DNA from: Escherichia coli
GTDB lineage: Bacteria; Pseudomonadota; Gammaproteobacteria; Enterobacterales; Enterobacteriaceae
Assembly (NCBI RefSeq): GCF_050320075.1
Contig: NZ_CP190018.1
DNA length: 64,000 nucleotides
Reading direction: 5' to 3' (one strand)
Below are positions 2,720 through 34,612 of this stretch, piece after piece; positions within the stretch are counted from its first letter, which is position 1, and each line of letters begins with the position of its first letter. The position numbers were made by a program, and so were the translations under genes. The notes beneath the pieces are model-generated. The model was not told the DNA's origin, did no database searches, and saw only the letters and a program-made list of their open reading frames with translations.

Positions 2720-5017
2720 ATGAAATGGCTATGTTCAGTAGGAGTCGCGGTGAGTCTGGCCCTGCAGCCAGCACTGGCGGATGATTTATTCGGCAACCAT
2801 CCATTAACGCCCGAAGCGCGGGATGCGTTCGTCACCGAACTGCTTAAGAAAATGACAGTTGATGAGAAAATTGGTCAGCTGCGCTTAATCAGCGTCGGCC
2901 CGGATAACCCGAAAGAGGCGATCCGCGAGATGATCAAAGACGGTCAGGTTGGGGCGATTTTCAACACCGTAACCCGTCAGGATATCCGCGCCATGCAGGA
3001 TCAGGTGATGGAATTAAGCCGCCTGAAAATTCCTCTTTTCTTTGCTTACGACGTGCTGCACGGTCAGCGCACGGTGTTCCCGATTAGCCTCGGTCTGGCC
3101 TCGTCTTTTAACCTCGATGCAGTGAAAACGGTCGGACGTGTCTCTGCTTATGAAGCGGCAGATGATGGCCTGAATATGACCTGGGCACCGATGGTCGATG
3201 TCTCGCGCGATCCGCGCTGGGGACGTGCTTCCGAAGGTTTTGGCGAAGATACGTATCTCACCTCAACAATGGGTAAAACCATGGTGGAAGCGATGCAGGG
3301 TAAAAGCCCGGCAGATCGCTACTCGGTGATGACCAGCGTCAAACACTTTGCCGCATACGGCGCGGTAGAAGGCGGTAAAGAGTACAACACCGTCGATATG
3401 AGTCCGCAGCGCCTGTTTAATGATTATATGCCGCCGTACAAAGCGGGGCTGGACGCAGGCAGCGGCGCGGTGATGGTGGCGCTGAACTCGCTGAACGGCA
3501 CGCCAGCCACCTCCGATTCCTGGCTGCTGAAAGATGTTCTGCGCGACCAGTGGGGCTTTAAAGGCATCACCGTTTCCGATCACGGTGCAATCAAAGAGCT
3601 GATTAAACATGGCACGGCGACAGACCCGGAAGATGCGGTGCGCGTGGCGCTGAAATCCGGAATCAACATGAGCATGAGCGACGAGTACTACTCGAAGTAT
3701 CTGCCTGGGTTGATTAAATCCGGCAAAGTGACGATGGCAGAGCTGGACGATGCTGCCCGCCATGTACTGAACGTTAAATATGATATGGGGTTGTTTAACG
3801 ACCCATACAGCCATTTGGGGCCGAAAGAGTCTGACCCGGTGGATACCAATGCCGAAAGCCGCCTGCACCGTAAAGAAGCGCGTGAAGTGGCGCGCGAAAG
3901 CTTGGTGTTGCTGAAAAACCGTCTCGAAACGTTACCGCTGAAAAAATCGGCCACCATTGCGGTGGTTGGGCCACTGGCGGACAGTAAACGTGACGTGATG
4001 GGCAGCTGGTCCGCAGCCGGTGTTGCCGATCAATCCGTGACCGTACTGACCGGGATTAAAAATGCCGTCGGTGAAAACGGTAAAGTGCTGTATGCCAAAG
4101 GGGCGAACGTTACCAGTGACAAAGGCATTATCGATTTCCTGAATCAGTATGAAGAAGCGGTCAAAGTCGATCCGCGTTCGCCGCAAGAGATGATTGATGA
4201 AGCGGTGCAGACGGCGAAACAATCTGATGTGGTGGTGGCTGTAGTCGGTGAAGCACAGGGGATGGCGCACGAAGCCTCCAGCCGGACCGATATCACTATT
4301 CCGCAAAGCCAACGTGACTTGATTGCGGCGCTGAAAGCCACCGGTAAACCGCTGGTGCTGGTGCTGATGAACGGGCGTCCGCTGGCGCTGGTGAAAGAAG
4401 ATCAGCAGGCTGATGCGATTCTGGAAACCTGGTTTGCGGGGACTGAAGGCGGTAATGCAATTGCCGATGTATTGTTTGGCGATTACAACCCGTCCGGCAA
4501 GCTGCCAATGTCCTTCCCGCGTTCTGTCGGGCAGATCCCGGTGTACTACAGCCATCTGAATACCGGTCGCCCGTATAATGCCGACAAGCCGAACAAATAC
4601 ACTTCGCGTTATTTTGATGAAGCTAACGGGGCGTTGTATCCGTTCGGCTATGGGCTGAGCTACACCACTTTCACCGTCTCTGATGTGAAACTTTCTGCGC
4701 CGACCATGAAGCGTGACGGCAAAGTGACTGCCAGCGTGCAGGTGACGAACACCGGTAAGCGCGAGGGTGCCACGGTAGTGCAGATGTACTTGCAGGATGT
4801 GACGGCTTCCATGAGTCGCCCTGTGAAACAGCTGAAAGGCTTTGAGAAAATCACCCTGAAACCGGGCGAAACTCAGACTGTCAGCTTCCCGATCGATATT
4901 GAGGCGCTGAAGTTCTGGAATCAACAGATGAAATATGACGCCGAGCCTGGCAAGTTCAATGTCTTTATCGGCACTGATTCCGCACGCGTTAAGAAAGGCG
5001 AGTTTGAGTTGCTGTAA
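2720..5017 (+). CDS. bglX: Periplasmic beta-glucosidase (GH3)
   Basis: ORF 2648..5017. Start moved to MKWLCSVGVAVSLALQPALA signal peptide, giving 765 aa. GH3 family sequence. Confidence 0.9.
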   Translation: MKWLCSVGVAVSLALQPALADDLFGNHPLTPEARDAFVTELLKKMTVDEKIGQLRLISVGPDNPKEAIREMIKDGQVGAIFNTVTRQDIRAMQDQVMELSRLKIPLFFAYDVLHGQRTVFPISLGLASSFNLDAVKTVGRVSAYEAADDGLNMTWAPMVDVSRDPRWGRASEGFGEDTYLTSTMGKTMVEAMQGKSPADRYSVMTSVKHFAAYGAVEGGKEYNTVDMSPQRLFNDYMPPYKAGLDAGSGAVMVALNSLNGTPATSDSWLLKDVLRDQWGFKGITVSDHGAIKELIKHGTATDPEDAVRVALKSGINMSMSDEYYSKYLPGLIKSGKVTMAELDDAARHVLNVKYDMGLFNDPYSHLGPKESDPVDTNAESRLHRKEAREVARESLVLLKNRLETLPLKKSATIAVVGPLADSKRDVMGSWSAAGVADQSVTVLTGIKNAVGENGKVLYAKGANVTSDKGIIDFLNQYEEAVKVDPRSPQEMIDEAVQTAKQSDVVVAVVGEAQGMAHEASSRTDITIPQSQRDLIAALKATGKPLVLVLMNGRPLALVKEDQQADAILETWFAGTEGGNAIADVLFGDYNPSGKLPMSFPRSVGQIPVYYSHLNTGRPYNADKPNKYTSRYFDEANGALYPFGYGLSYTTFTVSDVKLSAPTMKRDGKVTASVQVTNTGKREGATVVQMYLQDVTASMSRPVKQLKGFEKITLKPGETQTVSFPIDIEALKFWNQQMKYDAEPGKFNVFIGTDSARVKKGEFELL

Positions 5018-21060: not shown

Positions 21061-24000
21061 TTAATGGAAAATGACGTCGGGTGCGCTTAACGCTTCACTC
21101 AAATCAAACACATCAAGTTCGGCAAAAGTGACAGATTTATTGTCACGGTATACATGAAGAGAACGGAAGCTCATTAGCGCTTTGCTATCAACATTGTAGT
21201 GGTTAAAACCGGATGAAAACTTAAGGACCAGCCGGTACTCGCCCAGGTCATAGACAAATGCATTCTCATAGCCTGACTCCCAGCCTTTGTATCGCATTCC
21301 CATAAGTTGCCCAACGGTAGCAGATTTACCTTCCCAGCGATTCAAACTATTACTGGCTGACTCGTCAGGCGTGAGCAGTACTGTGCGCCGTGCCAATTGG
21401 CGAAAAGGCGGCATAATTTCGTAATCGGCAAAAAGCTGTGCAAACTCACTGCGCATTTCTGCTGCCATTTCTAACGGGTGGGCAATGCCAATCAGAGCAT
21501 CGGCAGGCAGGTCAATTGGCTCATCTTGCTCATTGCAGAACTCCCCCTCAGCGGCCACACGAAAGGCGTTGAGTAAACGACGCGGTTCATTTGCCGGATA
21601 AACACCCCATATTAATCGCTGAGTAACCAGACGGGTAAAGGGATGATTAACAAACAGAGAATGAAAATCTGCCAGCGACCAGCGTCGGGTGGTGCGCAGG
21701 GCAGTTTCAAGACGCGGGAGCAGGTTTTTGCTCACCTGAGTGGCATCTTTTTTTAGCCCTTTTAGTCGGGCCAGTGCCTCGGGTGCTTTCAGTTGATCGT
21801 CATCGGCGCGCAACCGGGGAACGCTTTTCTGGCGAACGTTTTGCTGATCAAAGATAACCGGGTTAAGGTTTTCATCGAAGCGAACGGTAAATTGCCGTGG
21901 ACCAAAATCAAAAATCAACGCCTGCGGATCATCAAGACCCAGTGTTGGGACTAATCTGTCCGCTAACTGTTCCTGGCTTAGCCCTCGATTTTCTGCGACC
22001 ACCTGAAGAAATTCCGCCGCGTTATCACGTAAGGGGCGGGATTTCGCCCGTTGCGATATATGATGCAGCTGTATCAGTGCCATATCATTATTCATCTGAG
22101 TAAGTATGTTCAGGCCGCTGACGGCACGGGCAGATTTGCCTTCCTGTGGCCAGGCAAGGATCTGTGTCGTCAGATCCCGTGCCGTGCTTTCGTCGCCAAA
22201 GAGACTTAACGCCAGAAATGCCCAGTTGTCTTTTGCGGGAGCACCAGCTTGTTGCCACGCGGTGAAAAGATCCCAGGCAAAAGCTGCCAGCGTTTGCGGC
22301 TGGCAGAAAGTTTTCAGTTGTTCCAGTCCGCTATAAAAACGTCCGCCCTGGGTAAAGCGCAGCATTTCGCCGATAATTTCCAGTGCGTCATCGGTAACAG
22401 GCTGATTATTCGTGATAAGGCGCGGCCTGGACCACATTGCCGGCTGCCAGAAATCAGGGGCTTTTGGAATGCGTGTCGGGTAAATCTCTATTGGACTCTG
22501 TTTAAGTAAATGCTCCAGGGCAGGCCATACATCTGTACGCTGCCAGCGGTTTGCCGCGGTTTGCAGCAATTCACCATGTCCCTGTTCGTAAAGTAAACGT
22601 AGGGCAAGTAATGCAGCTTCGCTATTATCGCTGGATTTGGTGAAGACAAGAGGGATAAGTGCAGTAGCCGTATGTTCCGGCCATTGTAAAATCCACTGGC
22701 GAGCCAGATCACGCTGCGCCGCGAAACGTCGCCAGACGCGGGCAACGGGCAGGGCCAGTTCTGTTGCGCCAAAATTTAAAATTAACGGAAATGTTTCTTT
22801 TGGACGATATGAAAAAGCCAACAGCAGACCTGGTAGAGCATCCAATCCGAAGATACTGAGAAAATAGTCCTCACCCGCGAACAGATGCTTTTTCTCATTG
22901 ATACGTAGCCAGAAAGTCAAAGCTATCTCACGCGGCAACTGTGCCAATAAATACAGGTTCCAGATACTCTTTTCCCGACGATAGCGTGAGTAGCTGTCAT
23001 TTTCCCATATGTTAATTAACACTTCTACGTGACCGCTGCGAAGCGCCTGTTCTGCTAATTGTGCTTCCGGGGAGTTCCAGCCATTCAGGATCTCTTCAAC
23101 CCGCCCCTGGTAGTAATGCCACTGAACAATGAGTGAATTGCGTGCAGCATCCAGTTTTCCGGGGAGTATATAATTCAGAAACAGCCATACATCATCTCCA
23201 AAACCCAGCTCCTGTAGTACAACTCGTCCACTTTTATGTTCCATGCGTTCCGCAAGAGATTCCGTGCTGAAATAACGGGCAGACTCAGTGGCGGCAAGCC
23301 TCTCTCGTTCGCCTGGTTGCCAGTAAACTTGCGGCGTTAATTCGAACGGTGCCAAATCAAGACGTGGAACTGTCATTTTTTTCTTACTACGCCACGGTGG
23401 TGAAACGAGGATTTCAGGCATTTGGCTGTTATCGGTGCTATCAATAACCGTTTTAGGCGGTGCCGATAAATAACTATTCAGCACTGACCGGGCTTGAGTA
23501 CTTAACCACGGCATCACCTCTTCTGCCAGTTGTGGCTGCGATGCCATCAGCGTTTGTAACAGCGTACGCCAGTATTCATCACGTGCTTTTTGCTGTGCAG
23601 GCAGCTTTTTGTCTTCGATGATTGGATAACCAGGGCGCGTAGGTGGTTCTTTTAGCGCCAGCAGTTCTGCCAGTGCGGCAAGCGTCGCATGGGGGAAATT
23701 TTTACTGTATTTAGCTACACGTTGCAGGCTGGGTTTGTTTTTATCAGCAACTAACAGCAGGGTGCGGATGACCTGCGGATGGTTAATTTGTACCAGCAGA
23801 CTGCCGCAATCTTCTTTATGGGCATACATTGCCAGGCGTGGAACGGCTGCCAGTCCTTGTTCGCGCAAAAGGGCAGCGCAGGCCGCGTAGCCGAAGTGGT
23901 TTTCATGCGACATGTAGCTGGCTTCCCGATCGCTAAATATATCCTGGCTCCAGTAGCGTTCGAGTTTTCTCACCGCTCTGGGGTCAATAGCAACAACTTT

Positions 24001-24693
24001 TAACCACTCCTTAGAATGAAAATGAGTCCACGGGCATTCAAGGCTTACCAACTCATTGGCGATTTCTGGTTTTTCCGGGAGGATCAGAGCAATAAAAGGG
24101 CGGCGAACTTTGGTTATTCCTGGCAGTGCGGCAATGAGTTTGTCGGCGCAACGCTGCCAGCTGCTTTCCTCTGCCAGAGAGAGATGCTTACGCAGTCGGA
24201 GATCGAATTCGTTATAGGTTTCTGATCGATAACCATAGCCATAATCCTCGTTCTGATACTGCAATGTCACTAGCAGAGGATCACTTTCATAACATCGTGT
24301 AATAAACTGGCGTGCAATCACCACCTCAGTCGCATATTCCAGTCCCTCTTGTTGGACGATTTCGTCGAGCAACTGTTGGCTATCATTTTGCGCGATACAG
24401 GCTAGCGCCGCCATTGTCCGGGCCGGAACTGAGGGTTTGTGTTCGCCAATCAAGTTGATGGCCTGCGTAATGGCCGACTGCCACTCCAGTGAAAAATTTT
24501 CATAACGCCAGACAATGTTTTTTTTCTTCTCAGCTTTTTGTAGCAATTCATCACCCAGTGTCTGGATGAGGCTTTCAGTGATAACAGGCACCGGTTCGCC
24601 CGGCCAACTGCGATGGCTGAGCGGCGTTTTGCCTTTTTTATATTTCAGTTCCACTTGGGCGTTATCCGCCAGCCACGGTAATTCCTTGTCCAT
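21061..24693 (-). CDS. yehI: Large uncharacterised protein YehI (DUF4132-type, no WGR domain)
   Basis: 1210 aa. Shares conserved blocks with the two upstream paralogs (HLSLAEES.WQ.C..K, LIWGVY, C-terminal region) but lacks their N-terminal WGR-like domain. Confidence 0.85.
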   Translation of the reverse strand: MDKELPWLADNAQVELKYKKGKTPLSHRSWPGEPVPVITESLIQTLGDELLQKAEKKKNIVWRYENFSLEWQSAITQAINLIGEHKPSVPARTMAALACIAQNDSQQLLDEIVQQEGLEYATEVVIARQFITRCYESDPLLVTLQYQNEDYGYGYRSETYNEFDLRLRKHLSLAEESSWQRCADKLIAALPGITKVRRPFIALILPEKPEIANELVSLECPWTHFHSKEWLKVVAIDPRAVRKLERYWSQDIFSDREASYMSHENHFGYAACAALLREQGLAAVPRLAMYAHKEDCGSLLVQINHPQVIRTLLLVADKNKPSLQRVAKYSKNFPHATLAALAELLALKEPPTRPGYPIIEDKKLPAQQKARDEYWRTLLQTLMASQPQLAEEVMPWLSTQARSVLNSYLSAPPKTVIDSTDNSQMPEILVSPPWRSKKKMTVPRLDLAPFELTPQVYWQPGERERLAATESARYFSTESLAERMEHKSGRVVLQELGFGDDVWLFLNYILPGKLDAARNSLIVQWHYYQGRVEEILNGWNSPEAQLAEQALRSGHVEVLINIWENDSYSRYRREKSIWNLYLLAQLPREIALTFWLRINEKKHLFAGEDYFLSIFGLDALPGLLLAFSYRPKETFPLILNFGATELALPVARVWRRFAAQRDLARQWILQWPEHTATALIPLVFTKSSDNSEAALLALRLLYEQGHGELLQTAANRWQRTDVWPALEHLLKQSPIEIYPTRIPKAPDFWQPAMWSRPRLITNNQPVTDDALEIIGEMLRFTQGGRFYSGLEQLKTFCQPQTLAAFAWDLFTAWQQAGAPAKDNWAFLALSLFGDESTARDLTTQILAWPQEGKSARAVSGLNILTQMNNDMALIQLHHISQRAKSRPLRDNAAEFLQVVAENRGLSQEQLADRLVPTLGLDDPQALIFDFGPRQFTVRFDENLNPVIFDQQNVRQKSVPRLRADDDQLKAPEALARLKGLKKDATQVSKNLLPRLETALRTTRRWSLADFHSLFVNHPFTRLVTQRLIWGVYPANEPRRLLNAFRVAAEGEFCNEQDEPIDLPADALIGIAHPLEMAAEMRSEFAQLFADYEIMPPFRQLARRTVLLTPDESASNSLNRWEGKSATVGQLMGMRYKGWESGYENAFVYDLGEYRLVLKFSSGFNHYNVDSKALMSFRSLHVYRDNKSVTFAELDVFDLSEALSAPDVIFH

Positions 24694-24702
24694 GCTCTTT
24701 CC

Positions 24703-27700
24703 TTATTCAAACAGGGCTTCAATATCGTTAATGAGTTCGCTGGCGGTGATGTCGTCGAGCACGGAGAACTGCGCTTCCTGAGTTGAATTACTCCCCCAGC
24801 CATAGCTTTCCGCTTTGCCTTCCCATAGCCACAGCTTGCTTAAGACCTGCTCAGCGCTAAGATCGGCTGGTGACATACCCACCGCAAAACCTTCGTCGAT
24901 TTCCATGATTAACGACCAGCGACCGAGAGGTTTGATCATCCATCCGATCCAGCCTCCATCCTGTGGTTCGCCCTTTATCCAGCCTTTATTTGCCAGCCCC
25001 ATGACCCGGCCGCTCGGGCATTTTCTGCCTGCCCAGCGGGTCAGTTCGCTGGCGTTGCGCTCGGCTTCTGTCAGGGCGTAACTGTTACGTTCAAGCTGAC
25101 GGAACGGTGGTAGCAGTTCGTAGTCGGCAAAAAGCTGACCAAAGGCGACAGCATCCGTCGGTGATATTTCCAGAACGTGAGGAATGCCAACAGAGATATC
25201 GCCTTCCTGCAAGGTGAAAAGATCATCGTCAGCGGTGCTGTAGCTGTTATCTTCCGCCACCCTAAAGCACGCCTGTAGCTGGTTTTCGGCGCTATAAACG
25301 CCCCAAATCAGACGGCGGGTTAAGTGACGAACCAGCGGATGCTCAACCAGGAAGAGCTGAAAGTTTTCCGGCGACCAGCGGCGGCGCAGGCACATGGCGG
25401 ATTCCAGCCTTGCTACCTGCTGGGCGGCGACGGTACGCGCATCTTTTTTCAGCAATTTGTAGCGGTTAACAGCATCGTTTGCCTGTGATTCATCATCGCT
25501 TTTATTGGGTTTAGGTAAGTCTTTCAGGCGGCTGCCGGAAACATCGCGCACAAACGGTTTTAAGGTTTCATCAAAGCTGACGGTGAACTGCCGTGGGCCA
25601 AAATCCAGCAGCAGCGAACCGTTATCATCCAGACCGAGAGCCGGTGCTAACCGATCTTCAAGCTCCGCTACCGTCAGTTCGCGACTTTCGGCAATGTCGG
25701 CAATTTTCTCTTTCGCCCGCTCCTGTAATGCTTTGAATTTCAGTTTCTGGGCAATGCCGTTAAGCTGCATCAGGGCGATATCACTACTGATAGCGGCGAG
25801 GATATCCAGCCCGACGGTGGCGCGTTTATGCTGGGATTCACCAGGCCAGGCGCGTATTAATGGCGTCAGTTTGCGGGCGGTGTCATCGTTACCGAGAACG
25901 CCTAACGCAGTGAACGCCCAACTCTCTTTCGACGGCGCGCCAGCGGTCTGCCAGGCGGTAAACAGATCCCAGGCAAATTCAGCCAGTGAGTCGGCGGTAC
26001 AGGCATCTTTCACCTGCAATAATCCCGGATACAGCGCCTCCTCCTGATGGAAGCGGAGCATTTCACCGAGGTGCTGGAGTGCGCTATCGGGCAGTGATTG
26101 GGCATTTGCTTTTAATACCGGGCGGGTCCAGATCGATGGCTGATAAAAGGCCGGAAGAGTGGGGATTTTTGTCGGGTGATTATCTAAGGGATCGAGCGCA
26201 AGCATAGCGTTCACCGCATCTGTTACTTCCGGCTGGTTATAACGCCGGGCGATTTCTTGCAGTAATGGTTGATGACCGTTTTCGGTAAGCATACGCAATG
26301 CAGCGCGGGCGTTATCCTGTGCTTCACCGGCTTTGCCGAGCGCCGCAGACAGCAGGCCGGTAATGGCGTGTTCCGGGTATTTCAGCAGCCAGGTGCGGGC
26401 GTCTTGTCGTAGGGTTTTGAGTTTGTTGAAGGCGCGGGCGACGGCAGGTGCCAGCTCACTCGCTGCGAAGTAATTCGTTATGGGCAAGGCTTCCTGTGGA
26501 TAGCGTGCAAGTGAGTTTACTAACCCAGGTAATCCTTTGAGTCCAAAATGTAACATGGCGTATTCGGTATCGGTATGCGGAGATAGAGTAAGGGCATTCC
26601 ATGCTCTTACTGCTTTCTCCAGCGGCAATGTTGTCAAAATCCCCAAATGCCAATAATGCCCGGTAGGTGAATGAAACACCTTAAATTCACTTATTAAAGT
26701 TGAATAATCTTCATTTAGCCATGCCTCAACTACCGCTTCGGGAGCTTTAATATATGTACCAGCGATCCGTCGTTGAAAACCCATCCTTGCCAACAGATTG
26801 GCAGTACTTTCTTCATGACTAACCGTGATGTGTTTTGAATACCAGATATATTTCGCCAAAAGTTGATTACTGATTTCTTCTGTCAGATAACTGATTGGCT
26901 CAATACCTAATGGTGCTAAATCAAGCACTGGAATCGGCGATTTTTTCTTTTTCGAAAGCCATGGTGGGGAGACTACTATGGCCGGCAGTAGATCGGCGCT
27001 GGCATGGTTTGAGGGCTGTGTCAGTTGTTGCTGGCATGATTTCAGCACTGCAACTGCGGGTGTCGAAAGCCAGGGAATGACCTGTTCTGCTAGTGTCGGT
27101 TGCGAGATAAGCATCGTCATTAGCATAATGCGCCAACTATTCTCTTCTTTTTGCACTAGAAGTTCCGCCAGTGCTGCCAGTGCTGCGTGTGGGAACGCAG
27201 CGCAGGCTTTCGTCATTCGATCGTGACAGCGTTTAGTATGCCCTGCTACACGTATAAGCAGTGTTAATGCGAACGGATGATTGATATGACGCAACACATC
27301 GGCGCAGTAGTCACTTGCGACATAGGGAGCAAATCGGGGCAGGGCCGCAACACCTTGCTCCTGTAATACGGTGGCTGACCATATCGCACCACAATAGTAA
27401 TCATCAAAAATGGCATATGGCTCGTGATATTTTTCTAATGAGGCAAGAATGTGCTCATCAGTCGCCACTATTTTTAGCCACTCCAGCGAGGGTAATTTCT
27501 TTTGCCCCAGTAGACGCTGGGCAATTTCATGTGCAATTTCTGGTTTTTCGGGCAATAACAAAGCAATTAATGGTTGCCGCCATTCTGGAATATGTGGAAC
27601 TGCGGCAATAAGTTTTTGTGCACATTTTTGCCAGAGAGACTCTTCCGCCAGTGATAAATGTTTACGTAGGCGTAATTCAAAGCTGGAATATTGCTGCAAA

Positions 27701-28497
27701 TAATCAGGTGAAATGCCAGACGACAGGAAAACAATATTATTGTTGACATAATCCCATTCAATAGATATTTGTTGAAGATGTATTATTACATCAGTAGCAT
27801 ATTCCAGACCGCCTTCCTGAATAATCTGATCCATAACATCCGCACGCTCTTTATATCTCGTGCAGTGCAGTTCAAGTGCCGCGAGTACAGCCATTACCGG
27901 TGATGGTAATTTTGTCGTTTTCGGGCTGTTAATCAGATCGATCGCCTGAGCGATGAAGTTTTGCCACTCTAAAGTACAGGCGCTGAAGTCAAATGTAGCT
28001 GTTTTGTTATCCCGTTGCGACACGCCACAGGCTAAGCGACGTAACTGGGTTAATTTATCTACAGGTGTAACAGGATCTCCGGGAAAGCGGCGATGGCTTA
28101 AGGTGGTGGGTACGACTTCAAGCGGAAAAACGACAGCAATATCTTTTGCCAGCCACGGTAAAATAACGTCTGTATTTTTGTCAGCCACGTAGAATTCTGG
28201 TGTAACTGAGGGCTGTTCCTGAATGATGGTAGAAAAGTCAGATAATTCGAGAGATTTCGTTACCGTTCGAGTATGTTTCGATGTAGCATTCTCCGCATGT
28301 TCCACATACCCCTTTTTCGTTTTCTCCGCAATCAGCTTGAGTTCCGCTTTTTCCGCCGCCGCAGCATCTGCAAAGCTTTTTACCTGACTTTGCCCGTTGG
28401 TGCCGACTTTGCCCCAACTGATATTCAGTTCGTTTCCCTGCTGCTCCACCGCCCAGAATTTATGTGATTTTTCGTCCTGATAAATATAGGTTTTCAT
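24703..28497 (-). CDS. molR: WGR-domain / DUF4132 protein (MolR family), intact 1264 aa
   Basis: N-terminus MKTYIYQDEKSHKFWAVEQQGNELNISWGKVGT is WGR-like. Length equals the K-12 molR pseudogene product as I recall it. 9-nt gap to yehI. Confidence 0.8.
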   Translation of the reverse strand: MKTYIYQDEKSHKFWAVEQQGNELNISWGKVGTNGQSQVKSFADAAAAEKAELKLIAEKTKKGYVEHAENATSKHTRTVTKSLELSDFSTIIQEQPSVTPEFYVADKNTDVILPWLAKDIAVVFPLEVVPTTLSHRRFPGDPVTPVDKLTQLRRLACGVSQRDNKTATFDFSACTLEWQNFIAQAIDLINSPKTTKLPSPVMAVLAALELHCTRYKERADVMDQIIQEGGLEYATDVIIHLQQISIEWDYVNNNIVFLSSGISPDYLQQYSSFELRLRKHLSLAEESLWQKCAQKLIAAVPHIPEWRQPLIALLLPEKPEIAHEIAQRLLGQKKLPSLEWLKIVATDEHILASLEKYHEPYAIFDDYYCGAIWSATVLQEQGVAALPRFAPYVASDYCADVLRHINHPFALTLLIRVAGHTKRCHDRMTKACAAFPHAALAALAELLVQKEENSWRIMLMTMLISQPTLAEQVIPWLSTPAVAVLKSCQQQLTQPSNHASADLLPAIVVSPPWLSKKKKSPIPVLDLAPLGIEPISYLTEEISNQLLAKYIWYSKHITVSHEESTANLLARMGFQRRIAGTYIKAPEAVVEAWLNEDYSTLISEFKVFHSPTGHYWHLGILTTLPLEKAVRAWNALTLSPHTDTEYAMLHFGLKGLPGLVNSLARYPQEALPITNYFAASELAPAVARAFNKLKTLRQDARTWLLKYPEHAITGLLSAALGKAGEAQDNARAALRMLTENGHQPLLQEIARRYNQPEVTDAVNAMLALDPLDNHPTKIPTLPAFYQPSIWTRPVLKANAQSLPDSALQHLGEMLRFHQEEALYPGLLQVKDACTADSLAEFAWDLFTAWQTAGAPSKESWAFTALGVLGNDDTARKLTPLIRAWPGESQHKRATVGLDILAAISSDIALMQLNGIAQKLKFKALQERAKEKIADIAESRELTVAELEDRLAPALGLDDNGSLLLDFGPRQFTVSFDETLKPFVRDVSGSRLKDLPKPNKSDDESQANDAVNRYKLLKKDARTVAAQQVARLESAMCLRRRWSPENFQLFLVEHPLVRHLTRRLIWGVYSAENQLQACFRVAEDNSYSTADDDLFTLQEGDISVGIPHVLEISPTDAVAFGQLFADYELLPPFRQLERNSYALTEAERNASELTRWAGRKCPSGRVMGLANKGWIKGEPQDGGWIGWMIKPLGRWSLIMEIDEGFAVGMSPADLSAEQVLSKLWLWEGKAESYGWGSNSTQEAQFSVLDDITASELINDIEALFE

Positions 28498-28509
28498 TGC
28501 AAAGTCCTT

Positions 28510-31500
28510 TTAATCAAAAAGTGATTCGATGTCGTTAATGAGTTCGCTGGCGGTGATGGCATCAAGCGCGGAGAACGTGAGCGAGGGCTGTGTACTGTAG
28601 CGTTCCCCTGGTGAAGTGATTTTTACGCTTTCAACAGGTAGCAGGTCGCTATACCCCGTTTCGCCATAAATTAATGAAAAATGTTCTGTTTCAAGTTCGA
28701 GAGCGCCATAAGGGGTAGATTTGCGCATCGCATAGACGCTGCCGCTTTCTTCCAGACGTTGCCAGCCTCGACGTTCCAGCCCGACAATGCGCCCGGCCTG
28801 GCAAAGACGTCCTTGCCAGCGTATCAATTCATGGGTATCACGTTCATTATCAGTAAGGTGGTAATAACCACGATCGAGTTGGCGAAAGGGAGGAAGCTTT
28901 TCGTAATCAGCATAAATTTGCCCAAATGCAGTGGCGGATTCAGGAGATATTTCCAGCACATGCGGTATACCGATGTTTCCTGCTGGCAGCGTGAATAACT
29001 CATCCTGCGCATCGCTGTAAGTGCTGTCTTCTGCGACCCGGAAGCAGGCGATCAGCGTGTTTTCCTCAGTATATACCCCCCATAACACCCGTCGGGTTAA
29101 GTGACGTACCAGCGGATGCTCCACCAGAAACAGGCGGAACTGCTCTGCCGTCCAGCGTCTGCGCTGGCACATATCCTGCTCCAGACGATCAATCTGCTGG
29201 CTGGCAATGGCGTGCACATCTTTCTTCAATTGTTTGAAGAGGTTAACGGAGTCAGTTGCCAGTGTTTGATCATCGCTCTGATTTGGTTTGGGTAAATCTT
29301 TCAGGACTTTGCCGTTTGCATCGTGCACTACAGGTTTTAAGGTTTCGTCAAAACCAACGGTGAATTGACGTGGGCCGAAATCCAGTATCAGCGAGCCACT
29401 GTTATCAAGCCCTAAATCTGGAGCCAGGCGGTCTTCCAGTTCAGCCATAGTCAGCCCACGGTTTTCAGCAACTATGTTGATTTTCTCGCGGGCATGTTCC
29501 TGTAATGCTTTGAATTTAATTTTTCGCGCGATGCCATTAAGCAGCATTAGCGCAACATCGCTGCCAATATCAGCTAATACATCCAGCCCGTAAACCGCGC
29601 GTTTATGCTGGGATTCACCCGGCCAGGCACGGATAAGCGGGGTTAATTTACGTGCGGTGTCGTCATTGCCTAAAATCCCAAGCGAAGTAAATGCCCAGTT
29701 TTCTTTTGCGGGTGCGCCAGCTTCTGTCCATGCCGTGTAGAGATCCCAGCCAAAGTCAGCCAGTGATTCGTGGGTGAAGGTCTCTTTGATGGTCGCCAGC
29801 CCAGCGTAGGAGGTAATGTCGCGTGGAAAGCTCAACATTGTGCCCAGGTGGCGCATAGCGTCATCTGGCAGAGGCAGGTTGTTACTTTTAAGCCGTGGTC
29901 TGCGCCATAAGGTGAACTGATAAAAGCCGGGCAGTGGGGCGATTTTAGCGGGATATTCTTCCAGCGGATCGCTATCGAACAATGTTGCCAGCGCAGCTAA
30001 AACATCAGGTTGGTTGTATCTCCGGCCGATTTCTTCAATCGTTTCTCGCTGGTTTAATTTCACTAGCAGGCGGAATGCCTGGCGGGCATATTCCCGATTT
30101 TGGCACGGTTTGCCCAGCGCCAAAGGCAGTAGCCCGGCGGCGGCATGGCGCGGGTTATTTGCCAGCCAATTAATGGCATCCTTGTAAGCCATTTTTTTCT
30201 GTAACCGCTGCGCCATTGGTAAGGCTAGTTCACTGGCCCCAATAAAGAGGGTGAATATCCACAGTCGTTGATGATCTCGTTGCAAGCAGGTCATAAACGC
30301 AGGAATGGCCGTACTACCAAAAACTGCCAGAATCTCTTTCTCACCTGAATATCGCTCCTCAATGATTATTTGGTTGAGAAATGAAATCGCCTGTTGTCCC
30401 GGTAAGTAACAAAGCGCAGATAGATTCCAGCTTTTGTTGGCATTGTTGTGATATTTCGCAAACTCAGCTTTTAGTGCTGGAAAATCAAAGCGCAACAAGG
30501 CATCAACAGCGCTTTGCGGTATATATTTTTTTTCATGTAAGTCATCTTCGCAATGCAGCCATTCATTAAAACCTAATTGCCAAAGGATTTGTTGTTCTGG
30601 TGTAAAAGGAATGAAAGATGTCTCCCAGCTTTCTTTTTCAATTAGTGGCAGGTCGGTAAATAAGGTTTGCTGTGATGACTGATATTGCGCGATTTCACTG
30701 AATCTGGATATGTCAGTATGACTGATTAACTCTGTAATTCCTGGCGTGATGTCAGTGACTGCAGGGATGGGAAGCACCGGTAAATCAAATACGGGTATTA
30801 CATTCGTTTTCTTATTTATTACCCACGGTGGAGCGACAAACAGCTCCGGCAACATATCCGCAGTGGCGTATTCACATTCTTCAGCGACTAACTGAGTACG
30901 ACATTCAGATAAGATGCCTGCCGCTTTAGCATTAACCCAGGGAATGACGTCAGTGACTAAATCTGGCGTGGCGGTAATCAGTTTGACAAGCGCTTTACGC
31001 CACTGTGCATCTTCATGTATTGCCAGTAAAGTTGCATAAGCGGCAAGAGCCGCAGCGGGATGTTTTTGACAGGCTTTGCTTAAGTATTCCAGGTGCTTTT
31101 TCTTGCCAATTACACCGAGGATCAGAATTTGAATCGCATCCGGGTGATTCGTTTTCCATAGCCATTTGACAAGATCTTCAGTCTCGCTGATGCGCTCGAA
31201 GAGATAAGTGGGATTGTCAGAATGCTCTTCCGTAAACTCAAGAAGTATCCGGCTTACACCGCGCACCCCATTATTTGCCAGCAACATTGCCAGATAAGCG
31301 CGAAAATCATGATACAACGGTGGGAAGTCGTATTTTTCTGCTGTAGTCAGAGCGGCGTCATCGGTTACCACCAGTCTTAACCAGGTCATCGCCGGAACGT
31401 TTTGATCTGCATAACGTAGCGCCATAGCATTGGCAATATCCGGGCGTTCAGGGAGCAGTAACGCCGCAAAAGGTTGCCGTGCTGGGGATAGCGAGGGAAT

Positions 31501-32307
31501 AGCAGCGAGAACTTTATCTACACAGCGTTGCCACTCATCTTCTGAAGCGAGTGAAAGATGATGACATAGACGTTGATGCCAGTTCGGTAGTGATTCTGCT
31601 TTGAGATCAGGGGGAATAATGGTGGTGACGTCGGCTTTTACTGGTTTATATTTGAGTTGAAGAGCGAGAAGGGCGATTTCAACGGTAGTTTCCAGACCAC
31701 AGCGAATGACTAAGTCATCGACCAGTTCATCTGTAGAGTAAGAGTTCCATAAATTCCAGAGCAATGCCGCATCAGATTGTATACTTCCTGTTTGTTGATT
31801 ATTCAGAATTCGCCTTTGTAACTCGGCAAACGCCAGCTGCCAGTTTTCAGGATAAGAGCGGTAATTATTGTCGGGGTCATATGCCCTGGTGTTATTCGCG
31901 ATGCGCTTCCATATTTGGCCATCTTTGTACAGATAATTGATCTCTCTGGGGCGAGAGCGATGAGGAAAAGCAAATCGATTAATATCGCCAGTTACCGGAA
32001 TGACTGCATCATCAGCCACCCATGGGCGTTTGTTTTTACTCTCAGGGGAGGTTTCAACTTCAGGAGTGGCTTTGGTGATGGGGGGGATATGCACGTTTGC
32101 TAAAGCATTTTCCACATAGCCTTTTTTCGTTTTCTCTGCGATCAGCTTAAGCTCCGCTTTTGCCGCTGCCGCAGCATCCGCAAAACTTTTTACCTGGTTT
32201 TGCCCTTTGGTGCCAACTTTTCCCCAACAGATATGCAACTCGTTTCCCTGTTGCTCCACCGCCCAGAATTTATGTGATTTTTCGTCCTGAAAGATAAAGT
32301 GCCTCAT
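28510..32307 (-). CDS. Second WGR-domain / DUF4132 paralog (MolR-like), 1265 aa
   Basis: N-terminus MRHFIFQDEKSHKFWAVEQQGNELHICWGKVGT. Same architecture as molR, diverged in the middle. 12-nt gap to molR. I do not recall a second copy in K-12. Confidence 0.8.
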   Translation of the reverse strand: MRHFIFQDEKSHKFWAVEQQGNELHICWGKVGTKGQNQVKSFADAAAAAKAELKLIAEKTKKGYVENALANVHIPPITKATPEVETSPESKNKRPWVADDAVIPVTGDINRFAFPHRSRPREINYLYKDGQIWKRIANNTRAYDPDNNYRSYPENWQLAFAELQRRILNNQQTGSIQSDAALLWNLWNSYSTDELVDDLVIRCGLETTVEIALLALQLKYKPVKADVTTIIPPDLKAESLPNWHQRLCHHLSLASEDEWQRCVDKVLAAIPSLSPARQPFAALLLPERPDIANAMALRYADQNVPAMTWLRLVVTDDAALTTAEKYDFPPLYHDFRAYLAMLLANNGVRGVSRILLEFTEEHSDNPTYLFERISETEDLVKWLWKTNHPDAIQILILGVIGKKKHLEYLSKACQKHPAAALAAYATLLAIHEDAQWRKALVKLITATPDLVTDVIPWVNAKAAGILSECRTQLVAEECEYATADMLPELFVAPPWVINKKTNVIPVFDLPVLPIPAVTDITPGITELISHTDISRFSEIAQYQSSQQTLFTDLPLIEKESWETSFIPFTPEQQILWQLGFNEWLHCEDDLHEKKYIPQSAVDALLRFDFPALKAEFAKYHNNANKSWNLSALCYLPGQQAISFLNQIIIEERYSGEKEILAVFGSTAIPAFMTCLQRDHQRLWIFTLFIGASELALPMAQRLQKKMAYKDAINWLANNPRHAAAGLLPLALGKPCQNREYARQAFRLLVKLNQRETIEEIGRRYNQPDVLAALATLFDSDPLEEYPAKIAPLPGFYQFTLWRRPRLKSNNLPLPDDAMRHLGTMLSFPRDITSYAGLATIKETFTHESLADFGWDLYTAWTEAGAPAKENWAFTSLGILGNDDTARKLTPLIRAWPGESQHKRAVYGLDVLADIGSDVALMLLNGIARKIKFKALQEHAREKINIVAENRGLTMAELEDRLAPDLGLDNSGSLILDFGPRQFTVGFDETLKPVVHDANGKVLKDLPKPNQSDDQTLATDSVNLFKQLKKDVHAIASQQIDRLEQDMCQRRRWTAEQFRLFLVEHPLVRHLTRRVLWGVYTEENTLIACFRVAEDSTYSDAQDELFTLPAGNIGIPHVLEISPESATAFGQIYADYEKLPPFRQLDRGYYHLTDNERDTHELIRWQGRLCQAGRIVGLERRGWQRLEESGSVYAMRKSTPYGALELETEHFSLIYGETGYSDLLPVESVKITSPGERYSTQPSLTFSALDAITASELINDIESLFD

Positions 32308-32402
32308 TCTGCATCCCTGTAATTTTATCCAGTTGAATGCTGATGCTACCAGTATTTATGCGGGTTAGAGAGAGACAAAATCGCAAGAAAACAACTTTAG
32401 GA

Positions 32403-32437
32403 ATTTATAAAGAAAAGGCGCTGTCGATACAGCGCCT
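32403..32437 (-). terminator. Intrinsic terminator of metG
   Basis: Hairpin ggcgctgt-cgat-acagcgcc followed by a U-rich tract on the minus strand, 10-45 nt after the metG stop. Confidence 0.6.
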
Positions 32438-32447
32438 TGAAAGGAGA

Positions 32448-34481
32448 TTATTTCACCTGATGACCCGGTTTAGCACCGGCATCCGGGCTTAGCAGGAAAA
32501 TATCTTTCCCGCCAGGACCGGCAGCCATCACCATGCCTTCGGAGATACCGAAGCGCATTTTACGTGGTGCCAGGTTAGCCACCATAATGGTGTGACGACC
32601 AATCAGTGCCTGCGGATCCGGGTAAGCAGAACGAATGCCGGAGAAGACATTGCGTTTTTCACCGCCGAGATCCAGCGTCAGGCGCAGCAGTTTGTCGGAA
32701 CCTTCAACAAACTCTGCGTTTTCAATCAGTGCCACGCGCAGGTCAACTTTGGCGAAGTCATCAAAGGTGATAGTTTCCTGGATTGGATCGTCAGCCAGCG
32801 GGCCAGTTACCGGCGCGGCAGCGGCTTTTACTTCTTCTTTAGATGCTTCCACCAGTGCTTCAACCTGCTTCATATCGATGCGGTTATACAGCGCCTTGAA
32901 CGGATTCACTTTATGGCCCAACAGCGGTTGCTGGATACCATGCCAGGTCAGTTCTGTATTGAGGAATGCTTCTGCACGCTCGGTCAGTTTCGGCAGTACC
33001 GGCTTCAGGTAAGTCATCAGCACGCGGAACAGGTTGATGCCCATCGAGCAAATTGCCTGCAGGTCGGCATCGCGGCCTTCCTGTTTCGCCACCACCCACG
33101 GAGCCTGTTCATCGACATAGCGGTTAGCCAGGTCAGCCAGCGCCATAATTTCGCGTACTGCTTTACCAAATTCGCGGCTTTCCCACGCTTCACCAATCAC
33201 TTCAGCGGCATCCGTGAAGGTTTTGTACAACTGCGGGTCAGCCAGTTCGCTTGCCAGCACGCCGTCAAAACGCTTGTTGATAAAGCCAGCGTTACGGGAT
33301 GCCAGGTTAACCACTTTATTCACGATATCGGCATTCACACGCTGAACGAAATCTTCCAGGTTGAGATCGATATCATCAATGCGCGAAGAGAGTTTCGCAG
33401 TGTAGTAGTAACGCAGGCTGTCAGCATCAAAATGATTCAGCCAGGTACTGGCTTTAATAAAGGTGCCGCGAGACTTGGACATCTTCGCGCCGTTCACCGT
33501 CACATAGCCATGAACAAACAGGTTAGTCGGCTTGCGGAAGTTGCTGCCTTCCAGCATGGCAGGCCAGAACAGGCTGTGGAAGTAAACGATATCTTTACCG
33601 ATGAAGTGGTACAGCTCGGCGGTGGAATCTTTCTTCCAGTATTCATCGAAGCTGGTGGTGTTGCCGCGTTTGTCGCACAGATTCTTGAAGGAACCCATGT
33701 AGCCAATCGGTGCGTCCAGCCAGACGTAGAAATATTTGCCCGGCGCGTTCGGAATTTCAAAACCGAAGTAAGGGGCGTCGCGGGAGATATCCCACTGTTG
33801 CAGGCCGGATTCAAACCACTCCTGCATTTTGTTTGCCACCTGCTCCTGCAACGCACCGCTGCGGGTCCATGCCTGCAACATTTCGCTGAAAGAGGGCAGA
33901 TCAAAGAAGAAGTGTTCAGAATCACGCATTACCGGGGTAGCGCCAGAAACCACCGATTTCGGCTCGATCAGTTCAGTCGGGCTGTAGGTCGCACCGCAGA
34001 CTTCGCAGTTATCGCCGTATTGATCCGGGGATTTACATTTCGGGCAGGTGCCTTTTACAAAACGGTCCGGCAGGAACATGCCTTTTTCCGGATCGTAAAG
34101 CTGAGAGATGGTGCGGTTTTTAATAAAACCGTTTTCTTTCAGGCGAGAGTAGATAAGTTCTGACAACTGGCGGTTCTCTTCGCTGTGCGTCGAGTGATAG
34201 TTGTCATAGCTGATGTTAAAGCCTGCGAAATCAGTCTGATGCTCCTGACTCATTTCGCCAATCATCTGCTCCGGGGTGATACCGAGCTGCTGAGCTTTCA
34301 GCATGATCGGTGTGCCGTGGGCATCGTCGGCGCAGATGAAGTTGACCTCGTGGCCGCGCATTCGCTGGTAACGGACCCAGACATCAGCCTGGATGTGCTC
34401 CAGCATATGGCCGAGGTGGATTGAGCCGTTAGCGTACGGCAGTGCGCACGTCACCAGAATTTTCTTCGCGACTTGAGTCAT
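32448..34481 (-). CDS. metG: Methionyl-tRNA synthetase
   Basis: ORF 32448..34490. Start at [25 protein letters not shown] gives 677 aa. Class I aaRS HIGH motif and KMSKS present. Confidence 0.95.
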
Positions 34482-34612
34482 AGTAGGCATTACTTCTTAA
34501 TAGTGAAAAGGGGTTAGATAGTACCAAATGGAAAAATGTTAAGTAAGTACTTCTCTATATTCTTCAGGTAAACTATCAGCTGATGGTTTATCTATACAAA
34601 AAAGGAGTCGGG

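Follow-up and report, generated by a model that had tools for sequence, protein, structure and literature searches.

How did Escherichia coli K-12 come to carry a single, broken molR (yehH) gene at a locus where another strain carries two large and intact ones? The question is raised by a 64,000-nt stretch of E. coli chromosome (RefSeq assembly GCF_050320075.1, contig NZ_CP190018.1; hereafter the window), the segment 20500-33000 of which is 100% identical to E. coli strain CFSAN061768. The minus strand of the window holds, downstream of metG (32448-34490), three large paralogs arranged head to tail, in the order C, B and yehI. C and B, both intact in this strain, combine a WGR domain (PF05406; 65.3 bits in C and 64.5 bits in B, with a gathering cut-off of 22) with a DUF4132 domain (PF13569; 164 bits in C and 175 bits in B, with a gathering cut-off of 27); yehI matches DUF4132 at 161 bits and gives no match to WGR. 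K-12 molR belongs to the same WGR and DUF4132 family, window B being the ortholog of its body and window C the ortholog of its start and promoter, but K-12 has a single broken hybrid where the window strain retains both parents intact. A first-pass annotation of the window, made from the sequence alone, had noted near-identical nucleotide blocks at the ends of B and C and proposed that they could drive recombination or gene conversion. We consider it very probable that these end blocks act as direct repeats, gene conversion between them homogenising the 5' block and crossover between them leaving in-frame hybrids; the mechanism is ordinary homologous deletion together with gene conversion.

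The repeats themselves are readily defined. A 37-nt string shared by the 5' ends occurs exactly twice, at 28444-28480 and 32254-32290; the first-pass annotation had recognised it correctly, although it misplaced it by 3-4 nt. At its full length the exact run is 39 nt and occupies nt 18-56 of the coding sequence (CDS) in both B and C. It lies within a direct repeat of 204 nt at 86% identity (28295-28498 / 32105-32308, spacing 3810), in keeping with the longer stretch of roughly 85-90% identity that had been described. At the 3' ends the shared sequence reported earlier is likewise real: a 25-nt string is present exactly twice (24727-24751 and 28534-28558), inside a maximal exact run of 27 nt (24725-24751 / 28532-28558) and a direct repeat of 67 nt at 85% identity, with a spacing of 3807, so that both pairs stand about 3.8 kb apart as had been stated. 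Shuffled sequence gave an expectation of 0 matches for the 37-nt and the 25-nt string alike. Both repeat pairs are in direct orientation, and they flank the segment that is lost in the deletion products described below. Elsewhere B and C are only 47% identical in amino acids and 56% in nucleotides, with long stretches at only 30-50% nucleotide identity.

Similar ends on two paralogs might simply reflect purifying selection on the WGR domain and on a C-terminal motif, C having been lost from some strains by unrelated deletions. At the protein level there is something to recommend this proposal, since the DEKSHKFW motif is conserved out to Chitinophaga and Bacteroides and Klebsiella retains the C-terminal SELINDI motif. 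Moreover, the 39-nt run (codons 7-19, QDEKSHKFWAVE) is identical in the C gene of K. oxytoca, with every synonymous site unchanged (L017 6267-6306), and is nearly unchanged in other Klebsiella copies, which suggests that in enterobacteria these nucleotides are under an additional constraint of their own or have been exchanged. A universal nucleotide constraint on the run was also considered and was rejected beyond the enterobacteria, since the distant phyla encode DEKSHKFW with other codons. Selection on the protein alone does not, however, account for the synonymous sites. The codon is also the same for 72% of the amino acids shared by B and C in the 5' block, versus 47% elsewhere, four-fold degenerate sites match at 15/22 positions in the block versus 92/242 elsewhere, and a body window with equal amino acid conservation (83%) is only 73% identical in nucleotides. 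Thus the excess of nucleotide identity and of codon sharing indicates that the repeats are real, beyond what protein conservation alone yields.

The first-pass annotation also anticipated that single-copy strains would carry chimeras with a breakpoint in the conserved blocks, and this is what the loci contain. Nine single-copy loci with a 5' junction were read, namely K-12 molR and eight others, seven of the eight with the K-12-type junction and one, from strain Rb-50, with a different junction. In 9/9 the first 17 nt are C-specific and the gene then becomes B-type inside the 5' block, and the hybrids carry the C-side upstream region at 94-100% identity. For K-12 itself, the molR body is 92% identical in nucleotides to window B versus 59% to window C, while the start and promoter of window C are the orthologs, at 94-99%, of those of molR. 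Hybrid open reading frames (ORFs) are intact in L005, L006, L008, L009, L050, L051, L052 and L053. Two lesions inactivate K-12 molR: codon 275 has become a stop, and 1 nt has been inserted near nt 2845. Both are far from the junction, and they are point mutations unrelated to the fusion. The suggestion that the repeats might explain the pseudogenised state is therefore not borne out, given these positions and the many hybrids that are intact.

The K-12 type was compared with two-copy haplotypes. Against the closest of them, that of strain G3X16-2 (L048), the hybrid has 22 consecutive C-type sites and is B-type thereafter; the switch is best placed after nt 141 (p=1.2e-7), and nt 1-145 are identical to G3X16-2 C. 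When the window alleles are used as the reference, C-type sites reach nt 159 and B-type sites begin at nt 168. Among K-12-type hybrids nt 168-300 are nearly identical, and their C-like 5' parts resemble different C alleles. A single old deletion, with later allelic recombination entering from the metG side, would account for this pattern, and repeated deletion would also be possible from these sequences.

Two further products differ from the K-12 type in the position of the crossover. At the informative sites of nt 5-17 the single gene of Rb-50 follows C; from nt 57 onward all informative sites are B-type, and over the next 2 kb it shows ~9 differences from window B (99.5% identity); since the switch falls between nt 17 and nt 57, the crossover lies within the exact 39-nt run. 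The second product was found with a query built as the predicted 3'-block crossover, that is, the start of yehI, the B tail and the C body. This junction was contiguous in exactly one genome, EC190759, whose gene equals the C gene of the two-copy strain 1439 up to nt 3767 with 1 single-nucleotide polymorphism and whose last 34 nt are the B tail; the downstream flank is identical to strain 1439 at 3642/3642 bases. The crossover lies within a 15-nt identity of the 3' block, CATCACCGCCAGCGA. All three junction types fall inside shared homology with the reading frame kept, and parental two-copy haplotypes are at hand for comparison: strain 1439 matches EC190759 on both sides of its junction, G3X16-2 C matches the 5' part of the K-12 type and window B matches the B part of Rb-50. 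Had C been lost by deletions unrelated to the blocks, in-frame junctions inside them in 10/10 of the single-copy loci read would be hard to understand. The one unrelated loss that was seen looks quite different: in E. coli SY3626 (L010 5288-6893) C is cut short by an IS1A element after ~890 nt, with B, yehI and yehK absent, a loss that is mediated by the insertion sequence (IS) and unrelated to the homology blocks.

The frequency of these states was estimated in 5426 complete E. coli genomes. The C body was present in 1643/5426 and the 3' half of B in 5327/5426, and a 740-nt junction query, consisting of 140 nt of upstream sequence and CDS nt 1-600 of K-12 molR, was contiguous in 3720/5426, a count that may take in minor junction variants such as that of Rb-50. 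In two-copy genomes the match to this query ends with the block itself, at CDS nt 197. Thus ~30% of complete genomes carry two genes and ~69% carry the fusion. The Rb-50 junction sequence was found in 1/5426 genomes, and no genome matched a hypothetical 5'-block hybrid made from the haplotype of strain 1439 (ST131-like), from which we infer that this lineage has produced none.

Given that the fusion is the majority form, and that the full K-12-type B allele occurs in no sampled two-copy strain, it was not unreasonable to consider the opposite order of events, in which the single K-12-type gene is ancestral and some E. coli later gained a second copy by insertion of a foreign C body. The distribution of the tandem makes this highly improbable. 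The order metG-C-B-yehI is found also in Escherichia sp. E1V33 and in Klebsiella oxytoca, the order C-B-yehI is found in E. whittamii and K. spallanzanii, and in E. albertii metG-C is followed by the end of the contig. All the C genes and all the B genes fall into two separate clades in a neighbour-joining tree of the gene bodies, built on 1118 ungapped positions; each clade takes in a Klebsiella copy and has 100% bootstrap support. The shared tandem and the span of the two clades across genera place the duplication before the split of Escherichia and Klebsiella and make the single copy the derived state. The single-copy body, at 92% to B versus 59% to C, is that of a B ortholog and not of a pre-duplication gene. 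Finally, a B gene that is K-12-type from about nt 330 at a two-copy locus (L013) indicates that the K-12-type allele circulates among two-copy strains.

Outside E. coli, the single gene between metG and yehI in K. grimontii (L018 9857-13717) belongs to the B clade, has C-like upstream and early coding sequence, and is B-like from ~nt 111-132; to judge from this sequence, a deletion of this kind may have occurred independently in Klebsiella as well. Its C-to-B switch is weak (best-cut p=0.013, uncorrected), and it was not counted as an independent fourth hybrid. In Escherichia sp. MOD1-EC7003 (L015 98-3541) the gene in the C slot, inside which the contig ends, is only 39% identical in amino acids to window C and 45% to B, so the slot adjoining metG can hold a third and very different type of paralog.

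The claim that gene conversion acts between the paralogs also finds support. The tree of CDS nt 1-195 contradicts that of the body: Escherichia B and C group together at 100% bootstrap, and the ortholog groupings receive 0%. Among 8 two-copy E. coli genomes, CDS nt 1-17 has 5 fixed differences between B and C with 0 shared polymorphisms, nt 18-56 has 0 fixed differences, and nt 57-197 has 0 fixed differences with 18 shared polymorphisms; past nt 197 the two genes are not alignable. The homogenised 5' tract is thus bounded sharply at nt 17 and at nt 197. Local mosaics are also seen, the C gene of L013 being B-like at nt 159-205 and both genes of an O157 strain (L004) having AAC at nt 79-81. Neither the discordant tree nor the shared polymorphisms would be expected from selection on the protein alone, and together with the junctions and the raised synonymous identity they leave that proposal with very little credence.

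A subtler proposal accepts the deletions and does without conversion, attributing the likeness of B and C within a genus to convergence in base composition or codon usage, or to coevolution of the two WGR domains with a shared partner. Klebsiella does have a higher G+C content than Escherichia, and the genus-specific replacements common to both paralogs (codons 21, 26, 39 and 41) could be co-adaptation. However, when six windows of equal length were taken from the conserved body as controls, 5/6 grouped by ortholog, and base composition is therefore not a general cause of grouping by genus; as the main cause of the grouping in the 5' block it was rejected on these grounds. The remaining control window, a 195-nt stretch of the DUF4132 body, groups by genus (bootstrap 0.84). 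Within E. coli, moreover, composition is constant, yet the 18 shared polymorphisms are accompanied by no fixed difference, and the local mosaics also speak against convergence. We therefore regard the deletions without conversion as improbable. The DUF4132 window that groups by genus (body-alignment columns 951-1016) may itself be a second conversion tract and a possible further crossover site. Two further exact runs common to B and C, one of 23 nt and one of 20 nt, are found in the DUF4132 region (25721-25842 / 29498-29619).

The history that we propose from these comparisons is as follows. B and C are ancient head-to-tail paralogs whose first 197 nt and last 67 nt have remained similar enough to serve as direct repeats spaced 3.8 kb apart. 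Non-reciprocal exchange, that is, gene conversion, would homogenise CDS nt 18-197, with protein-level selection adding to its effect, and homogenisation and selection together would allow the repeats to persist while the gene bodies diverged to the present level. A crossover between repeats would remove 3.8 kb in frame and leave one hybrid gene. In the 5' block it would join the C promoter and C start to the B body, the form seen in K-12 molR, so that after the deletion the promoter adjoining metG would drive the B body directly; in the 3' block it would join the C body to the B tail. The minimal processing segment for recombination in E. coli is roughly 20-27 bp, which the exact runs of 39 and 27 nt exceed, and recombination may accordingly be RecA-dependent and seeded in these runs. 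The K-12-type junction at the far edge of the block could then reflect branch migration to the boundary of homology, and the 15-nt junction of EC190759 could arise without RecA, by slippage or annealing. Since yehI lacks the WGR domain and both end blocks, we assign it no role in the exchanges between B and C. The features concerned are collected in the table.

Table. Coordinates of the three paralogs, the homology blocks and the junction intervals in the window.
Feature	Position	Strand	Remarks
Paralog C, WGR + DUF4132, 1265 aa	28510..32307	-	ORF, Pfam, annotation; first gene after the metG-side promoter
Paralog B, WGR + DUF4132, 1264 aa	24703..28497	-	ORF, Pfam; ortholog of K-12 molR body
yehI, third paralog, 1210 aa, DUF4132 without WGR and without either end block	21061..24693	-	ORF, Pfam
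metG/C intergenic region	32308..32447	-	97-99% identical to K-12 molR upstream region
5' homology block, C copy (CDS nt 1-197, codes WGR domain)	32111..32307	-	86% over 204-nt repeat
5' homology block, B copy (CDS nt 1-197)	28301..28497	-	86% over 204-nt repeat
Exact 39-nt run, C copy (CDS nt 18-56)	32252..32290	-	Rb-50 crossover interval
Exact 39-nt run, B copy (CDS nt 18-56)	28442..28480	-	exact match
K-12-type junction interval in C (CDS nt 142-167)	32141..32166	-	last C-type site nt 141-159, depending on reference allele
Matching K-12-type junction interval in B	28331..28356	-	B-type from CDS nt 168 in all K-12-type hybrids
Spacer, C stop to B start, 12 nt	28498..28509	-	absent from 5'-block and 3'-block deletion products
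3' homology block, C copy (final 67 nt, stop codon included)	28510..28576	-	27-nt run 28532-28558; EC190759 crossover 28544-28558
3' homology block, B copy	24703..24769	-	27-nt run 24725-24751; EC190759 crossover 24737-24751

Several observations weigh against repeat-mediated deletion and conversion. The reciprocal duplication, with two C bodies, was found in 0/5426 genomes, the C body matching at most 1 place per genome, although its absence is still compatible with intramolecular deletion or with loss of the duplication. The exact 39-nt run is only mildly unexpected within a block of this similarity (P about 0.04), and given that its motif is conserved across phyla and that the run is unchanged in K. 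oxytoca C, its perfect identity owes much to selection. The common, K-12-type junction is not in that run but at the far edge of the 5' block, and the hybrids that share it are, on their sequences, compatible with one event or with several. The Rb-50 and EC190759 events each rest on one public assembly, GCF_022846255.1 and GCF_036287725.1 respectively. Lastly, B-C identity is 0.845 within a genome and 0.840 between genomes, with no within-genome excess, which implies that conversion is not rapid or frequent relative to allelic recombination; conversion is probably episodic, or masked by allelic recombination.

As a process, the molR fusion is a Lepore-type fusion combined with concerted evolution of the tuf type, and no earlier description of it for molR was found in the literature. 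As in the Lepore delta-beta globin fusion, head-to-tail paralogs have crossed over in retained homology to give an in-frame hybrid whose promoter and 5' end come from the upstream gene and whose 3' part comes from the downstream one, the intervening DNA being lost. The molR locus differs in lying on a haploid bacterial chromosome, in having homology only in two short blocks at the ends of otherwise very diverged genes, in that the hybrid is the majority allele of the species, and in that no anti-Lepore duplication was found among the genomes searched. The tufA and tufB genes of Salmonella and E. coli undergo concerted evolution by RecA-dependent gene conversion, and B and C resemble them in that paralogs of one lineage are closer to each other than orthologs of different lineages are, with polymorphisms common to the copies. 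However, tuf is homogenised over the whole gene and its copies are dispersed, whereas in B and C homogenisation is limited to CDS nt 18-197 and perhaps a short tract in DUF4132; and since B and C are adjacent direct repeats, unlike tuf, deletion competes with conversion.

These findings change how molR is to be read. The gene is not simply decayed, but is a fusion of two paralogs older than the split of Escherichia and Klebsiella, and the K-12 molR promoter, which lies in the molR upstream region and is activated by BglJ-RcsB (PMC3950696), originally belonged to the other paralog, C. Pangenome analyses and genome-wide association studies will mis-cluster the locus if they fail to recognise the hybrid. 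More generally, the locus offers a natural case of short terminal homology that is both kept by conversion and the cause of gene loss, with old, recent and independent events in one species.

The alleles of B are themselves unusually diverse. Within E. coli, CDS nt 150-1200 and 1650-2000 (window ~27300-28350 and ~26500-26850) have mean pairwise nucleotide identities of 0.63-0.73, with a minimum of 0.45, and in the 3' third the pairwise identity is 0.92-0.96; C alleles are also unusually diverse, at 0.81-0.95. B alleles are mosaic, that of L013 passing from the window-B type to the K-12 type near nt 330. There is also a class of short B alleles, ~3.0 kb long with ~760 nt of the middle absent, which is intact in PapRG-06-5 (L049 12954-15986) and E1V33 (L020 8456-11485) and frameshifted in O157:H7 (L004 4755-7740). 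Conserved flanks around divergent middles with mosaic alleles (45-70% nucleotide identity for B) recall the target-recognition domains of type I hsdS, the tips of Rhs and other polymorphic toxins, and pilE/pilS, loci at which cassettes are exchanged by homologous recombination. B and C, however, showed neither silent cassettes nor invertases nor any programmed switching, and there ordinary allelic and paralog recombination is at work. One could nevertheless imagine that the end blocks are handles by which a hypervariable, sensor-like middle is passed from strain to strain and from the slot of one paralog to that of the other, diversifying a conflict or surveillance system that would include yehL (a MoxR-type ATPase), yehM (DUF5682), yehP (vWA) and yehQ (SWIM). 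We hold this to be rather doubtful; if it were true, the K-12-type hybrid would be a bridge that mixes C-type and B-type 5' polymorphisms. The PADLOC-DB v2.0.0 defence models gave no match for B, C, yehI, yehK, yehL, yehM, yehP or yehQ, and the literature on molR, yehI, yehLMPQ and their domains held no report of recombination at the locus or of a function for it, PMC3950696 being the sole relevant paper. The extreme divergence of B within the species and the uncharacterised partner genes make the locus worth experimental work.

Other rearrangements were noted at the locus. Insertions of IS4, IS5 and IS3 are present in further strains matching the window, and in strain AH19F006 (NZ_CP196243.1, 4364226-4383637) the 3' half of B and the C body are ~15 kb apart, so that something has been inserted or rearranged between the two genes. 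In the window strain both yehL (19027-20170) and yehM (16737-19184) are split into two ORFs by a frameshift or stop, and in related strains that have the same B and C proteins, strain 2900 (L054) among them, a deletion runs from within yehI to within yehM.

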